IMG/VR virus record: IMGVR_UViG_3300010346_001007
Location: 55,435-119,434 of that record
Length of the DNA stretch: 64,000 nucleotides
Strand: one strand, 5' to 3'
Source: a virus
Lineage: Duplodnaviria > Caudoviricetes
Position numbers and translations under genes: made by a program
The notes under the pieces: generated by a model
What the model saw: only the letters and a program-made list of their open reading frames with translations
Databases searched by the model: none
Told to the model about the DNA's origin: nothing
Shown: positions 7,357 to 63,275 of the stretch, one piece after another
Position numbering within the stretch: position 1 is the first letter of the stretch
Layout: every line of letters begins with the position of its first letter

Positions 7357-10071
7357 ATGGATATTAAATGGAGTGATCCATATTCTATGAAAATAGGGTT
7401 TCGCACCGTATGGCGAAGAGAGTGGTGTATTCCTCCCTCCATGTTAGAATCGTTTTTCATGTTCTGGAAACGTAACCGATTTAAGATGTTAGCCAATGGA
7501 TTTACGGTTACTAAAAGTTCTAATACTGGAAAATGGTTTTTATTTGAAACTAAAGATAATATAAAATTATTTGATTCTTTTAGTTTGGAGGAACCTTCGC
7601 TCCCCGTAGATTCTTTTGTATTACCGGATTATCAAATTAAGAATATACAAGGATTGCGTACTTGGCAAGTAGAATCTGCCGGAAAATTATGTGCAGCAAT
7701 TAAGCATTGGGGCGCAGCCATTGATGGTAGCGATACTGGATGTCATGCTAAGGGTCAGCCAATTTTAATGGCTAATGGAACTATTAAAAAAGTTGAAGAT
7801 ATTATTGTTGGTGATATTATAATGGGATGGCAGGGACCTCAAATAGTAACAGAATTAAAACGTGGTCGACAGAGAATGGCTAAAATAATCCCTAAAAAAG
7901 GCAAATCTTTCATTGTAAATTTAGATCATATTTTAACTGTTGCATTGACCAACAGTTGTTCTAAAACACATAAAACTACGGGAGGGTATTGTTATGGTAG
8001 TATTGTGGACATTAAAGTTAAAGATTATCTTAAATTATGTAATGCTACTAAACATGCAATGAAATTATTCTCGGTTGCAGTAAATAATTGGGAGAGTAAA
8101 AATTTACCTTTTAGTCCATATTTTGTGGGTGCTTTACTCGGAGATGGAGGAATGTCAACACGATCTACAGTTACATTTACATCTAAAAAAAGTGTAATTT
8201 GGGAAATGATTTCCAATGAATGTAATGAAAATGGATGGAAACTTGGGACTACAAAAGAGAACATTACACGAAGAATAACTAATGCTCCAACATTATTTAA
8301 ATGGTTAAGAGATAATAATTTGTTGCCAGTTTCATGTGCAAATAAATTTATTCCTCACAATTATAAAACGGGAAGTCAAGAGCAACGATTACAATTATTG
8401 GCCGGTTTGTTGGATACCGACGGTTATTATCATCGTAACAATGGATATGAAATAACATTAAAATCTTCTCGATTATCGGAAGATATAGTATTTGTTGCCC
8501 GATCCCTTGGATTATCAGCATATACTAACCCCTGTAAGAAAAAAAGTAGTACTGGAGTAATAGGAGATTATTTTAGAACATTTATAAGCGGAAATGTTGA
8601 TATAATACCATGTCGGGTCGATTATAAAAAAGCGAAACCCAGAAGACAAAAGAAAGATGCTCTACGTCGGGGATTTAGAATTGAATTACTCGAAGAAGAC
8701 GATTACTATGGGTTTTCCCTGGATGGAGATGGTAGATTTTTATTGGGGGATTTTACTGTAACACATAATACTGGTAAAACTTATTCTTCAATTGCAGTTG
8801 CTCGGGAATTAGATTTAAAAATTTGTGTAATATGTCCCAAATCAATTATTAATAAATGGAAACAAGTTATTACAGAACATTTTGGCCTTGGAGATAAATT
8901 AATTGATGTAACTAACTATGAAAAACTTATTCGAGGAAATAAGGATTCAAAAATTGGTTCGTTTGTATTGCATCGTCATGCTAGAGGTAAAAAATTTGAA
9001 TGGAAACTCCCTAAAAAAACACTTATTATATGGGACGAAGCACATAAATTAAAAAACTGGAAAACTCAAAATGCAAAAAGATGTAATGATGCCATTGTAA
9101 AGGGCTATCCGATGTTATTTTGTTCGGCCACCTTAGCTACTAATCCATTAGAAATGAGAGCTATTGGTAAAGCAGTTAAGTTATTTACTGGTAGCCGATC
9201 TTATTATGATTGGGCATATAATAATGGTGTATATAAAGGAACATGGGGGTTGGAATTTAATAATGATAGAAGAGTACTTAAACGACTCAATCATCAATTA
9301 TTTACCCAACGGGGAGTGCGGTTGAGGCGGGATAAAATACCCAATTTTCCAGTTAGCGAAATTAGTCCAGAAATATATGACATGGATTTACAAGATGTCA
9401 ACAAGATCAATGAAATTTTTTGGGAAATGGAACGGGAACTTGAACTTGTTCGTCAGAGAGAAAAAGAAGATAAAAAAAGAGCCAATCAAGTAAATCAAGA
9501 ATTACAAGAAATAGTAATTCAAATGCGAGCAAGACAAAAAACAGAATTAGTAAAAGTGCCCCTGTTTATAGAAATGATAGAAGAAGCTAAAGAAGAGGGG
9601 TTTTCAGTTGTAGTATTTGTTAATTTTACCGAAACTTTACAAGCAATGGCTAATCGTATTGGAACAACATGTATTTTTGATGGACAAATTCCAGATAAAG
9701 AGCGAGCAAAAAATGTGAAGTTATTTCAAGCGGATAAAGAACGAGTAATTATTGTCAATACTCAATCAGGAGGGACGGGATTAGATTTACATGATTTACA
9801 TGGTAATTTTCCAAGATTAAGTTTAATTTCTCCTGCATATTCGGTTATCCTTATGAAACAAGCATTGGGCCGAGTTTGGAGAGATGGAGCTAAAACCAAA
9901 AGTCTTCAAAAAATTGTTTGCGTGGCAAATACAGTTGAAGAAAATGTATGTAAAAATTTGCAGAGAAAATTTAATAATTTGAGTTTATTGAATGATGGTG
10001 AATTGGATAAGTTAGATATACTTAGTGATAAAGATTTGGCATATTCGAGAAATTCAACAATAGATATATAA
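7357..10071 (+). CDS. SF2 (SNF2-like) helicase/ATPase containing an intein
   Basis: Split Walker A (DTG|TGKT), DEAH, SAT, GGTGLDL and QALGRVWR motifs. Confidence 0.9.
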   Translation: MDIKWSDPYSMKIGFRTVWRREWCIPPSMLESFFMFWKRNRFKMLANGFTVTKSSNTGKWFLFETKDNIKLFDSFSLEEPSLPVDSFVLPDYQIKNIQGLRTWQVESAGKLCAAIKHWGAAIDGSDTGCHAKGQPILMANGTIKKVEDIIVGDIIMGWQGPQIVTELKRGRQRMAKIIPKKGKSFIVNLDHILTVALTNSCSKTHKTTGGYCYGSIVDIKVKDYLKLCNATKHAMKLFSVAVNNWESKNLPFSPYFVGALLGDGGMSTRSTVTFTSKKSVIWEMISNECNENGWKLGTTKENITRRITNAPTLFKWLRDNNLLPVSCANKFIPHNYKTGSQEQRLQLLAGLLDTDGYYHRNNGYEITLKSSRLSEDIVFVARSLGLSAYTNPCKKKSSTGVIGDYFRTFISGNVDIIPCRVDYKKAKPRRQKKDALRRGFRIELLEEDDYYGFSLDGDGRFLLGDFTVTHNTGKTYSSIAVARELDLKICVICPKSIINKWKQVITEHFGLGDKLIDVTNYEKLIRGNKDSKIGSFVLHRHARGKKFEWKLPKKTLIIWDEAHKLKNWKTQNAKRCNDAIVKGYPMLFCSATLATNPLEMRAIGKAVKLFTGSRSYYDWAYNNGVYKGTWGLEFNNDRRVLKRLNHQLFTQRGVRLRRDKIPNFPVSEISPEIYDMDLQDVNKINEIFWEMERELELVRQREKEDKKRANQVNQELQEIVIQMRARQKTELVKVPLFIEMIEEAKEEGFSVVVFVNFTETLQAMANRIGTTCIFDGQIPDKERAKNVKLFQADKERVIIVNTQSGGTGLDLHDLHGNFPRLSLISPAYSVILMKQALGRVWRDGAKTKSLQKIVCVANTVEENVCKNLQRKFNNLSLLNDGELDKLDILSDKDLAYSRNSTIDI
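7741..8769 (+). mobile_element. Intein (343 aa) with LAGLIDADG homing endonuclease
   Basis: Starts CHAKGQPILMANG; block B IVNLDHIL; GALLGDG and LAGLLDTDG; ends VTHN followed by +1 Thr; inserted in the P-loop. Confidence 0.95.
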
Positions 10072-14611: not shown

Positions 14612-14665
14612 ATGAACTACCCCTACGCTAAAGACGTAGGAGTTTTCTGGCGACTCAAAGATAAA
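14612..14665. mobile_element. 54-bp hairpin mini-element, copy 1 (IS200/IS605/IscB end-like)
   Basis: atgaactacccctacgctaaagacgtaggagttttctggcgactcaaagataaa, identical to 63222-63275; cctacg/cgtagg stem around ctaaaga. Confidence 0.7.
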
Positions 14666-14681
14666 TGATAGATTATTAATA

Positions 14682-18667: not shown

Positions 18668-18695
18668 GCCCCCGATTATTCGGGGGCTTTTTTTT
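18668..18695 (+). terminator. Rho-independent terminator
   Basis: gcccccga-ttat-tcgggggc followed by T8. Confidence 0.85.
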
Positions 18696-18744
18696 GTATA
18701 AATTGAGGATTTTTATAAATTTTGATATATTTATATGCAGTATT

Positions 18745-19626
18745 ATGAATGATCCTGAAATTTATCTTATTGAACCATATAATGCTTATTTGCCTAAAAG
18801 AAAACGGCACTGGCATGATATTGTAGCCGAACAAGAATTGTATGCAAGAATTTTAGCGGAAGCTAATCGTAATGCAACGTTGGCACCTAATATGCCAGAT
18901 CAAGCAATGCCCCCGATACAACCTATTCCTCCGGCGGCGGGTGGAGGATCACCAGCGCCGGAGTTTTTTACTCCCGATATGGATGCAGAGTTTGACTTTA
19001 TCCAATCGATTGATACAGGATCGGCCCCAGCATTAGTCACATTTAATTTTAGTGGAGATTCAATATTTCGAGAAGTTGGTTCATTAAATGTAGAATGGGA
19101 TTTTGGCGATGGCACTGTAGGTACAGGATTTGATGTACAACATTGGTTTAATACTACTGGAAGCAATGCAAATAATGAATTTGATGTAACTATGTCGGTA
19201 TATGCTAAAGTAGATCTTTCAAAATCTGCTTCGGTAGAAAAAACTATACAAATCAATCCGCCAACTGTTGTTGCGGCATTTACTCTTGGTTCTCCTGCCA
19301 CATTAACTGGAAATTATTATACGGCTTCGGCGGGACAATCTATTCCATTTATAAATGGAACAGTAACTAATAATCCGTTAAATCCAATTACTTATTTATG
19401 GAATTTCGGAAGTGGTTCGGAACCAGATACAAGTAATGCAGTTAATCCTCACTATTCATATGCAGATGCAGGAGATTATACGGTGACATTACAAGCCACG
19501 GGGTCATTTGGGATAATGAGTGCCGGAACTCGAAAAATCCAAATTGTAGAAGCCGAAGAAAACGGCAACGGTGAAGAAAATGGCAACCCCGTTCATCCGC
19601 CGCCCGGACCGGTGTTGCCGCCCTGA
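18745..19626 (+). CDS. PKD-domain virion protein (two PKD repeats)
   Basis: WDFGDG..H and YLWNFGSG...P.YSY..AGDYTVTL; TATTTAT at 18728; ends ...VLPP-TGA. Confidence 0.8.
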   Translation: MNDPEIYLIEPYNAYLPKRKRHWHDIVAEQELYARILAEANRNATLAPNMPDQAMPPIQPIPPAAGGGSPAPEFFTPDMDAEFDFIQSIDTGSAPALVTFNFSGDSIFREVGSLNVEWDFGDGTVGTGFDVQHWFNTTGSNANNEFDVTMSVYAKVDLSKSASVEKTIQINPPTVVAAFTLGSPATLTGNYYTASAGQSIPFINGTVTNNPLNPITYLWNFGSGSEPDTSNAVNPHYSYADAGDYTVTLQATGSFGIMSAGTRKIQIVEAEENGNGEENGNPVHPPPGPVLPP

Positions 19627-19702
19627 TGCCGAAGAAAACGGCAACGGTGAAGAAAATGGCAACGGTGAGGAAAATGGTAATGGGGAAGAAATCGGCAATG
19701 GA
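19552..19702 (+). repeat. EENGNG-coding tandem repeats; 36-bp direct repeat at 19552-19587 and 19628-19663
   Basis: gccgaagaaaacggcaacggtgaagaaaatggcaac present twice, in different reading frames either side of the stop at 19624. Confidence 0.85.
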
Positions 19703-20101
19703 GAGGATTTAGGAAAGCCGAAAAATGTATCTGCTAGAACTCCCGAATTTTACATCGATTTGGGTGGTGAATCTTCTGTATATGACGGGGGCATTATCGA
19801 TCTTGGAGAGGGAGTAGATACAATTGCACCGCAGGATTTTGTAATAAGGAGTACGGACTTTCCGATGACAATTATAAAAATAGAATTTGTCGGTGAAAAT
19901 TCCGAAGATTTTGACTTGGCTCTTCCAAATGGACAGGATCCATCAGATATGGAATATGAAATGACTGCCGAAGGATATACGATTACAATTGGTGCTTCAC
20001 TTAATGAAGGCCCGGAAGGAAAAACTACTACTTTAATAATTACTCCAGCGGTAGGAGAACCTTTTTCTGTAACAATAACTGCAACTTTTCAACAAGAATA
20101 A
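19622..20101 (+). CDS. Ig-like extension, probably translated by +1 frameshift from the PKD gene
   Basis: CCC-TGA at 19621-19626; the +1 frame continues PDAEENGNG... into a beta-rich Ig-like domain; no convincing own start. Confidence 0.65.
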   Translation, partial: PDAEENGNGEENGNGEENGNGEEIGNGEDLGKPKNVSARTPEFYIDLGGESSVYDGGIIDLGEGVDTIAPQDFVIRSTDFPMTIIKIEFVGENSEDFDLALPNGQDPSDMEYEMTAEGYTITIGASLNEGPEGKTTTLIITPAVGEPFSVTITATFQQE

Positions 20102-20104
20102 TAT

Positions 20105-21607
20105 ATGACTGATACAAAAGTAATTATAAACTGGACTTATGATGGTAATTCACATGATGGGTTTAAGCTACTCCGTTCAACCGATGGCGGTAGTACTTGG
20201 CCTGTTACTATTGATATTTCGGAACCTACCGATAGAACATATGAAGATAATGATATATTGTTAGGAGAAACTTATCATTATAAATTAGCCGCTTATAAAG
20301 GTGAAACTACTGGGAATTATAGTGATCCTGTCCAAGTAACTATTACAATTAATGTAAATACTCTTACATTTACTGTAACCGCACAACCAGATACTAAAGA
20401 ATTTGACGGCAATACGGATTCTTCTAAATCGCCAATTGTAGTAGGGAAATTTTATAAAGGAGATTCGGGTACTTTTTCTCAACATTTTGATAGTCCAAAA
20501 ATTAGTGAATATGCTAATATAACTCCAACCAGTTCAATAAACAATATATCTGAAAAAGAATATGATTGTGAATTTATAGATGCTGAGGGTGAAATTACTT
20601 GGGATAGAGGAAATAGTACAGATATTATTGTTGTGCCAACTGATTTAAATATGTTACTGGGCGAAGGAGATCCTGAAGTTGGGATTGGAAATGAATTTCG
20701 AATGACTTATGGAACTAAATTTGTTGCCTTTAGTACTGCAACTGTTGAGGAATCTGAAGTTACATATATGTTAACTTCTTCCAATGCAATAGATTGGGGA
20801 ATTGGATATGAATTGGATAAGGAAATTTATCCCCAACAAGTTTTATTTACTGGACCTCATGGATTTATTATGACCTATGGATACGACGAAAATGGTATTT
20901 TTATATATTATCTTATAGGAGAAAATGGGAATGACTCCGACTTTGACACTATTGATTATGATGGTAATGTATCTGATCTTATTTATACAAGTGATGGATG
21001 GGTAGGATGTGGCACAAACAAATCAATAATAAATGTTAATAATAATTTCGTATCGGCGGTTTATCAAGTAAATAATGATGCAGGAAACAATGACCGATTA
21101 AATGGCGTTGTGTATGTTGGAGGAAAATATTATGTGGCATCCGAAGATAATGACGTAAATATAATAGATCCTTTTCATTCACAAGGAATTTATGTTTCAA
21201 CGGATTTACAATCATGGAGTACAATAACCGTTGATGGTGTTAATCCCGGAGAATTTCCGGCTCTTAGAGGAATCGCATATGGAGATGGTAAAATAGTAGC
21301 TGTGGGGCAAGCGGGAACTGTTATTACCTCGTCAAATGGAACAGACTGGAAAATGCTTTCGCTTCCAGATTTAATTTCAATGCCCGATAATGAGAATTTC
21401 AAACTTCCATTAGAATCCATATCTTGGAATTCGGAGAATTCGTATTTTATAATAACTAATGGATATGGATATGTTTATAAGACTTCCGATTTAGAATCAT
21501 TTGAACTTATTGGAACATACGATGGAATGTTTCAAAATTTTGAACAATCCAATTATTTTTCTAATATAGATAAAACGGTAATTTATGGCGCTCCCGGCGG
21601 GAGTTGA
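20105..21607 (+). CDS. Virion surface/tail-associated protein: FN3 + YDG/MBG-like + BNR-type beta-propeller
   Basis: W....GF.L.RS.DGG..W...Y.D.....Y.YKL.A (FN3); K.FDG.T; repeated S.D/N...W and IAYGDG..VAVG..G. Confidence 0.75.
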   Translation: MTDTKVIINWTYDGNSHDGFKLLRSTDGGSTWPVTIDISEPTDRTYEDNDILLGETYHYKLAAYKGETTGNYSDPVQVTITINVNTLTFTVTAQPDTKEFDGNTDSSKSPIVVGKFYKGDSGTFSQHFDSPKISEYANITPTSSINNISEKEYDCEFIDAEGEITWDRGNSTDIIVVPTDLNMLLGEGDPEVGIGNEFRMTYGTKFVAFSTATVEESEVTYMLTSSNAIDWGIGYELDKEIYPQQVLFTGPHGFIMTYGYDENGIFIYYLIGENGNDSDFDTIDYDGNVSDLIYTSDGWVGCGTNKSIINVNNNFVSAVYQVNNDAGNNDRLNGVVYVGGKYYVASEDNDVNIIDPFHSQGIYVSTDLQSWSTITVDGVNPGEFPALRGIAYGDGKIVAVGQAGTVITSSNGTDWKMLSLPDLISMPDNENFKLPLESISWNSENSYFIITNGYGYVYKTSDLESFELIGTYDGMFQNFEQSNYFSNIDKTVIYGAPGGS

Positions 21608-21662
21608 ACCCACAACCTGCGGATTAGAAGTCCGCCGCTCTATCCAATTGAGCTACGGGAGC
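21586..21662 (-). tRNA. trnR: tRNA-Arg (anticodon UCU), CCA encoded
   Basis: gctcccgtagctcaattggatagagcggcggacttctaatccgcaggttgtgggttcaactcccgccgggagcgcca folds as a cloverleaf. Confidence 0.95.
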
Positions 21663-54943: not shown

Positions 54944-55567
54944 ATGGAAATTACATTTTCTATTGTTGGAACAAGCATACATCCATCTCTTAATTTGACG
55001 GCATTTAAGGCTGCATATTTTGTAGCCGAAGAATTGTTAAAAAAATTCGAACAGTGCAATTACCCTATAACCCATCTTGTTTCTGGTGGGAGAGCGTTTG
55101 CTGAACACGTTGCGGTACAACTATTCTTAGATAAAAAAGTACCCCATTTACGAATATTTACTTCTTCTGATTATTGGTCAAATAAATTTGGCTTAAAATT
55201 TAATTATGGGGACAATCGGAAAAATTTTTCGGAAATGGAAAAACAACATCATTATAAATTTGATAGACTTACAGGAATTGATTCTTTAAATGCAATTAAT
55301 ATGGCTCGGCAAAGGGGGGCAGAAATAAAATATGTTTCCCGAGGGTTTCATGCTTGCAATGCATTAATAGCTAAATCTGATTTTTTGTTGGCCATTACTT
55401 ATGGAGAAAAAGATATTGTCAAGGATGTAGTAGCCGAACATATTGTTCGTAGATATTTAGAAAGAGTAAGAAAGGAAAATATTTTTGATAAATCATATCA
55501 TTATAATTTAAATGATGGAAAAGTATATGTTGGATGTAATATTCCACCTTTGATAAATAAGAAATAA
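54944..55567 (+). CDS. SLOG/DprA-like Rossmannoid protein
   Basis: I.IVGT, HLVSGG.A.A.H.AV and N.LIA..D.LLA. Confidence 0.5.
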   Translation: MEITFSIVGTSIHPSLNLTAFKAAYFVAEELLKKFEQCNYPITHLVSGGRAFAEHVAVQLFLDKKVPHLRIFTSSDYWSNKFGLKFNYGDNRKNFSEMEKQHHYKFDRLTGIDSLNAINMARQRGAEIKYVSRGFHACNALIAKSDFLLAITYGEKDIVKDVVAEHIVRRYLERVRKENIFDKSYHYNLNDGKVYVGCNIPPLINKK

Positions 55568-63221: not shown

Positions 63222-63275
63222 ATGAACTACCCCTACGCTAAAGACGTAGGAGTTTTCTGGCGACTCAAAGATAAA
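63222..63275. mobile_element. 54-bp hairpin mini-element, copy 2
   Basis: Identical to 14612-14665. Confidence 0.7.

Follow-up and report, generated by a model that had tools for sequence, protein, structure and literature searches.

A +1 shift of the ribosome at a CCC proline codon directly in front of a stop codon is a known route to a protein with an extended C terminus. In the Listeria phages PSA, A118, and A500, it takes place in tsh at (AAA) CCC_UGA (Zimmer 2003, Dorscht 2009, reviewed in PMC5009743); there, tsh has been proven to encode a major tail protein, and its short and long products were each detected in virions. In Bacillus phage SPP1, a +1 shift at CCC_UAA adds an FN3 domain of 87 residues to give gp17.1*, with a gp17.1 : gp17.1* ratio of 3:1, that is, a shift in about 1 in 4 (PMC6316719), and the added domain is a non-essential surface domain of the beta-sandwich type that sits on part of the subunits. 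Cellular genes leak at the same sequence: in Escherichia coli, the +1 shift at CCC_UGA reaches 15% in pheL and exceeds 1% in about half of the 19 K-12 genes ending in CCC_UGA (PMC5009743). Here, we analyzed a stretch of 64,000 nucleotides (nt), the window, which covers positions 55,435 to 119,434 of the IMG/VR virus record IMGVR_UViG_3300010346_001007. It contains a gene for a protein with PKD domains that ends in CCC TGA and is followed, in the +1 frame, by the coding region of a beta-rich domain (the C-domain). The phage is very large, since the record comprises 119,434 bases and is estimated to be only 34% complete. A preliminary description had proposed that a programmed +1 shift joins the two coding regions and had named PSA and SPP1 as precedents; these precedents are real (PMC5009743, PMC6316719).

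The PKD gene (18745..19626, + strand, frame 0) encodes a protein of 293 residues (P0081) with a conserved N-terminal region (EPYNAY...), two PKD domains (Pfam PKD_4, E 4e-16, and PKD, E 4e-14), an acidic linker specific to this lineage, and a proline-rich tail. It ends in ...HPPPGPVLPP with the codons CCG CCC TGA at 19618-19626, as had been described. At the candidate shift site, CCC_UGA (19621..19626, + strand), the last sense codon abuts the stop, and the +1 codon CCU (19622-19624) can be paired by the same tRNA-Pro; the next codon is GAU (19625-19627). The same holds for a near-identical strain, represented by contig L002. From 19622, the +1 frame reads CCT GAT GCC GAA (P D A E), enters the EENGNG linker a second time, continues into the beta-rich region, and stays open as far as the TAA at 20099-20101, again as originally seen. 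If CCCT is read as one step, a continuous product of 451 residues results from ATG 18745, of which 158 are the extension. Among the open reading frames (ORFs) of at least 100 codons in the 119-kb record, the PKD ORF is the only one that ends in CCC TGA.

The reading that we favor, at a probability of about one half, is that an insertion of 73 to 76 nt split a single gene and that +1 slippage at CCC_UGA now joins the halves again. The ancestral gene would have encoded one polypeptide, composed of an N-terminal anchor region, two PKD domains, an acidic linker, and the beta-rich C-terminal domain. The insertion in the linker would have consisted of a duplicated 39-nt linker piece and a GC-rich, proline-rich piece ending in CCC TGA. 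The majority of ribosomes would now stop at TGA and release the short form of 293 residues, while some would stall when peptidyl-tRNA-Pro occupies CCC and the A site holds UGA. In this state, the tRNA may re-pair one base forward onto CCU, and decoding would go on at GAU. The predicted long form of 451 residues would gain a second linker and the C-domain and would carry the junction peptide ...NGNPVHPPPGPVLPPDAE.... We infer that slippage occurs at this site, as well as its rate and selection for it; by analogy with the described CCC-stop sites, some long product is likely here on mechanistic grounds.

Compared to tsh of the Listeria phages, the site shows no difference (P-site CCC, A-site UGA, re-pairing on CCU), the extension is likewise C-terminal and in the +1 frame, and a short and a long isoform of one gene are predicted here as well. 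Unlike tsh, the gene is located among metabolism genes. The likeness to gp17.1* of SPP1 lies in a CCC-stop site that adds, or here would add, a C-terminal domain; however, the stop is UGA instead of UAA, CCC makes up 21% of the proline codons of this genome whereas it is rare in SPP1, and the extension of 158 residues includes a long acidic repeat linker and has a weakly supported fold. No special stimulators are needed for the bare CCC_UGA sites of E. coli to leak, in line with the absence of a detectable structure here. Their products are not known to be used, whereas here a domain and a matching linker lie exactly in the +1 frame. With regard to the cargo, the nearest likeness is to P0005, a distant homologue of the C-domain, and to members of the PKD family with three or four PKD domains: the same kind of C-terminal cargo is found at the same position, with an acidic linker. 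These proteins are made by ordinary decoding, whereas the join is broken here by the insert of 73 to 76 nt. While the kind of frameshift is known, this candidate is unusual in that it lies in a very large phage and in a carrier of the PKD family and bears a visible scar of the event that broke the frame.

The anatomy of this scar can be read from the DNA. A direct repeat of 39 nt is present at 19549..19587 and at 19625..19663 (both + strand); the copies are identical at 38 of 39 positions, 36 nt of them in one exact run, and are spaced 76 nt apart. What had been described as the same linker on both sides of the stop is therefore a repeat at the DNA level. Copy 1 encodes E-A-E-E-N-G-N-G-E-E-N-G-N in frame 0, and copy 2 encodes the same peptide, with D for the first E, in the +1 frame only; because 76 nt equals 1 mod 3, the linker switches from frame 0 to the +1 frame across the stop. 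Downstream of copy 2, three more degenerate units of 18 nt follow, and the entire acidic (G-E-E-N-G-N)n linker at 19625..19726 (+ strand) scores as coding when read in +1, where its units differ mostly by synonymous changes. Between the copies lies an insert of 37 nt (19588..19624, + strand) with a local guanine-plus-cytosine (GC) content of about 65%, compared to 32.5% in the genome; it encodes the proline-rich tail, the prolines of which are written solely with CCC and CCG. No other copy of the insert or of the linker was found in the 119-kb record, and no resemblance of the insert to the ends of insertion sequences (IS) was seen by eye. Deletion of one repeat period (76 nt) yields a single in-frame gene, and therefore, the simplest history is that of a continuous gene that was cut within its linker by a short insertion.

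The coding frames were compared by a codon model trained on the other long ORFs of the genome, with scores given per codon and frame comparisons in natural-log units. From 19625 to 20098, the +1 frame is coding, in the linker as well as in the domain, and the linker scores −3.9 per codon compared to −4.6 and −4.4. In the GC-rich patch, frame 0 beats the +1 frame by 8.0 units in the window and by 5.8 in L002, which fits the earlier suggestion that the beginning of the downstream ORF is no more than the PKD gene read out of frame, as its shadow. In the four best 18-nt linker units, 5 of the 7 columns that vary are wobble positions of the +1 frame (p ~0.05 by our own binomial estimate). Because of this bias, the coding score, and the homologues of the domain found elsewhere, the +1 region is not a chance ORF. 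The +1 frame opens at 19550, and its start-like codons are GTG 19571, ATG 19580, and then TTG 19760, with none between 19583 and 19760. Since the linker is translated in the +1 frame and this interval has no start, translation has to enter upstream of the stop, either by slippage or at ATG 19580 or GTG 19571. The downstream gene call of the record itself (P0083, 113 residues) starts at TTG 19760 and omits about 135 nt with coding signal in the same frame; anyone using the annotation should be aware that this call misses the translated linker.

A search with the PKD protein gave 72 matches, on contigs of up to 364 kb. Members of the family share a conserved EPYNAY...KKHW region at the N terminus and have 2 to 4 PKD domains towards the C terminus. 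In nearly all of them (>60), the last PKD domain is followed by just a few residues (e.g., ...IQIV), and this also holds for the closest members, at 60-61% identity. The additional linker and tail are confined to a cluster of 99% identity that comprises at least 14 contigs from JGI, ENA, and NCBI and four protein variants. Three tail alleles are present in this cluster, each with a proline followed by the stop: PVHPPPGPVLPP in the window, PVHPPHGGAAP in 3 contigs including L002, and PVHPPPSGAAP in 10 contigs.

With the C-domain (19727..20101 in the +1 frame of the + strand, up to and including the TAA), an exhaustive search of 1.84 billion representative proteins gave four matches, two of which are relevant. 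P0004 is a piece of 78 residues with 79% identity to the C-domain and mostly conservative changes. In P0005, the C-domain is found in frame at the C terminus behind an acidic linker, with 34-39% identity, and residues 2-62, in the N-terminal two thirds of P0005, resemble the N terminus of the next gene of the window (E 7e-8). Pfam found no domain in P0005; by our own reading of the sequence, its N-terminal part may consist of two FN3-like regions. The C-domain is thus, as judged from these sequences, a C-terminal add-on module elsewhere, and domains appear to have been shuffled among these genes. Since the C-domain is in frame in P0005 and the PKD family has 2 to 4 PKD domains, C-terminal additions are normal for these proteins. 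An in-frame fusion of PKD protein and C-domain, which had been named as a finding that would speak against a shift, was not present in the range of 245-781 residues among 5.8 billion clustered proteins; the C-domain was seen in frame behind the FN3-like regions of P0005. That the domain is Ig-like, as had been claimed, is weakly supported: AlphaFold2 predicts an all-beta structure of eight strands with a mean predicted local distance difference test score (pLDDT) of 42, language-model neighbors are BACON, "viral BACON," and HYDIN-like Ig clusters at 0.85-0.90, and the match to Pfam BACON (E 0.07) is below the cut-off.

Further evidence comes from L002, a contig of an ENA metagenome and an independent assembly, which aligns to the window over about 2.5 kb. 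It retains CGCCCTGA unchanged and has the same frame relation, and therefore, the frame break is not a slip of the assembly, a possibility that had been raised. The two strains differ in a patch of 15 nt that directly precedes CGCCCTGA (19604-19618; 1728-1739 in L002), where L002 has four substitutions as well as two deletions, of 2 nt and 1 nt, so that the net change is 3 nt. Both frames survive this change, and this outcome fits slippage and a separate start alike. The second difference is an in-frame deletion of 72 nt in the C-domain of L002 (window 19842-19913; L002 ~1963) between two GATTTTG heptamers, which removes 24 residues including predicted strands. Apart from these events, at most one point difference separates the window and L002 over the ~2.5 kb; the third tail allele is known as a protein sequence. 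With its high GC content and its small palindromes, the patch may be a hotspot of template switching.

In sum, slippage between the parts of a split gene is favored by a CCC_UGA with an open and coding +1 frame immediately behind it; by the fact that the linker of the PKD protein leads just to a tail of 12 residues, while the downstream ORF on its own would open with about 50 disordered residues; and by the persistence of the proline-stop split state through three tail alleles in at least 14 contigs, with a DNA-level variant of net 3 nt that kept CGCCCTGA. Several observations weigh on the other side. A stimulatory RNA structure was not detected, as the predicted folding at the site was not above that of shuffled controls (z +0.14 and −0.13), and an Rfam search at the site revealed nothing significant. 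CCC is not a rare codon in this genome, contrary to what would be expected of a tuned site. The polyproline run, thought earlier to help in stalling the ribosome, is missing from the other two alleles, which end in HGGAAP or PSGAAP and have kept just the last proline. For these three reasons, the term "programmed" is weakened. A scan with a profile of the family revealed eight loci at 29-35% identity, all with ordinary stops and none with a C-domain gene, and the arrangement is thus specific to the lineage. As to conservation of CCC-TGA, proposed earlier as a check, the site is kept in L002 and proline-stop in all three alleles of the cluster, and the arrangement is lacking in these more distant relatives. 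The DNA-level comparisons are all between strains that are otherwise ~100% identical, so that conservation of the site is of little weight, and a net-3 indel has a chance expectation of 1 in 3. Finally, the 72-nt deletion in L002 hints that the C-domain is dispensable or decaying.

The last point leads to the idea that the insertion has simply disrupted a fusion gene in a young lineage, that the C-domain is decaying, and that slippage at CCC_UGA is unselected leakage. We regard this as unlikely. It would account for the restriction of the arrangement to one cluster of ~99% identity, for the 36 nt that are exact between the repeat copies and suggest a recent duplication, for the C-domain of L002 that lacks 24 residues and whose next gene abuts an IS element, and for the lack of a stimulatory element. 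However, the split state persists in at least 14 contigs of several sources and in three tail alleles without either frame being destroyed, and the C-domain is kept at 79% identity in the more distant P0004. Also, a random disruption would have ended, by coincidence, in CCC_UGA, which is among the most shift-prone stops known.

A different explanation, which we consider unlikely, is that two separate proteins are made: the C-domain ORF would be initiated at ATG 19580 or GTG 19571 (19571..19582, + strand, in the +1 frame that is open only from 19550), overlapping the PKD gene by 47-56 nt, perhaps by coupling of initiation to termination at 19624-19626, and CCC TGA would be incidental. ATG 19580 is preceded by A at −3, −6, −12, and −13, a context typical of this genome, which also has to be counted against slippage. 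A residues at these positions matter in Bacteroidota-type initiation. Moreover, the +1 frame is open from ATG 19580 in both DNA alleles, and no fused form is on record. Nevertheless, the product would be odd. It would open with 15 arginine- and cysteine-rich residues, the codons of which fit the genome worse than those of frame 0, followed by some 35 residues of acidic linker before any fold, and its N terminus would vary between strains (RRPDRCCRPD versus RRTAAQRPD). The matching linker at the end of the PKD protein, absent from more than 60 homologues, would be left unexplained, the opening of the +1 frame at 19550 gives just the length expected of a shadow, and the gene call of the record begins at TTG 19760 and not at either of these codons.

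A more far-reaching version of slippage at a split gene would be that the insert of 73 to 76 nt is a hypermutable switch cassette, in which the share of PKD protein that bears the additional binding domain is governed jointly by indels of the patch, by deletion between the repeats, and by slippage at CCC_UGA. We consider this improbable; if true, a very large phage would have a surface display that is tunable or phase-variable, caught near the birth of a recoding site.

Highly improbable, in our view, is that the insert is skipped or lost, either by a ribosome that hops from copy 1 to copy 2 in the manner of T4 gene 60 or by a recombinational deletion of 76 nt in part of the population. Both would produce an in-frame fusion without the proline-rich tail, with the peptide ...EENGN-GEENGNGEEIGNG... 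and the junction ...EENGNGEENGNGEEIGNG.... The perfect direct repeats of 36 nt that flank the insert, the exact restoration of the frame by removal of one period, and the foreign composition of the insert would agree with such a mechanism. For a hop, the 36-nt repeat also provides matching codons, but none of the codons of copy 1 is followed by a stop, a significant take-off hairpin was not found, and the distance of 73 to 76 nt exceeds the 50-nt gap of T4 gene 60, the sole bypass named in PMC5009743. In both alleles, nothing interrupts frame 0 of the insert before the stop, a feature that a hop would not need, and the lack of a fused protein in the database speaks against hop and deletion alike. 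An artefact, such as a CCC run with one base too many or a wrong join at the repeat in this repetitive, GC-rich region, is scarcely credible despite the low coverage of L002 (~4x, from the contig name), since two independent assemblies agree on CGCCCTGA and the frame break and since all four protein variants on the at least 14 contigs stop here. Likewise, usual read lengths and the larger k-mers of assembly exceed the 36 nt of the exact repeat.

Should the long form be produced as slippage at CCC_UGA would predict, the CCC-stop +1 shift would not be limited to capsid and tail genes in small Gram-positive phages but would also reach a widespread family of PKD-domain proteins in very large environmental phages, here in a genome without Shine-Dalgarno sites. 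The duplicated linker would be the readable history of a gene that was cut by an insert and is bridged at best by slippage, and hence a case for how programmed frameshifts may arise from indels.

Other readings of the stop and its surroundings were rejected. Reassignment of TGA can be dismissed, as all three standard stops are in use and TGA terminates 41 of the 140 long ORFs of the record. Continued reading in frame 0 beyond TGA would add only 20 residues (19 of them, rich in Arg, Lys, and Trp, behind the recoded stop) before a TAA. An ORF on the minus strand (19504-19698) is a mere mirror of the repeats.

The preliminary description had called the PKD protein a virion protein, for which we found no indication: it has no PHROG family, blastn with the locus and tblastn with both proteins gave no match in 50,697 GenBank phage records, and the neighboring genes encode a dCMP deaminase, an RNA ligase, a kinase fusion, and a WGR-PARP-like protein, that is, functions in nucleotide and RNA metabolism. 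The neighbors at the related loci gave no structural match either (one endonuclease; the rest are unannotated and mostly without a PHROG family). All of this is an absence of evidence only. Scans of IMG/VR with the C-domain, the PKD protein, P0004, P0005, and a 28-nt junction pattern found no close relative, and near-identical records may lie outside the scanned set.

A strong hairpin with a T run that resembles an intrinsic terminator (18668-18697, + strand; 8 pairs, 7 of them G-C) and a promoter-like site (18703-18731, + strand) lie directly upstream of the PKD gene, and a transcription unit of PKD gene, C-domain ORF, and FN3-like gene likely starts in this region; no terminator-like site was found between the three. 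A Shine-Dalgarno signal is absent from the genome, with GGAGG upstream of 1 of 102 starts, and the start contexts are A/T-rich. The next gene (20105..21607, + strand, 500 residues) begins 4 nt past the C-domain ORF and has an FN3-like N terminus followed by a long beta-rich region; its match to Pfam fn3 (E 7e-4) is below the cut-off, and the beta-rich part gave weak hints of a beta-propeller. The sole tRNA of the 119-kb record, a tRNA-Arg (TCT) at 21586-21662 on the minus strand, overlaps the 3′ end of this ORF by its coordinates.

In L002, the gene that corresponds to the FN3-like gene is adjoined, at window position ~20577, by the IS element (L002 2623-4053), the 400-residue ORF of which is, by our own reading, of the TnpB/IS605 OrfB type. 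The element is 97% identical to a copy elsewhere in this phage (G000 10569-11999, outside the window), and solo ends of 44 nt are found at three further sites of the record (window ~14622-14666 and 63232-63275; G000 9881-9922). Past the element, L002 is not collinear with the window, and the contig may have been joined through the repeat. The opposite end of the contig (L002 1-140) does not match the phage and translates to ...SYTHLRAHET..., which we take to be the signature of a sequencing-adapter artefact.

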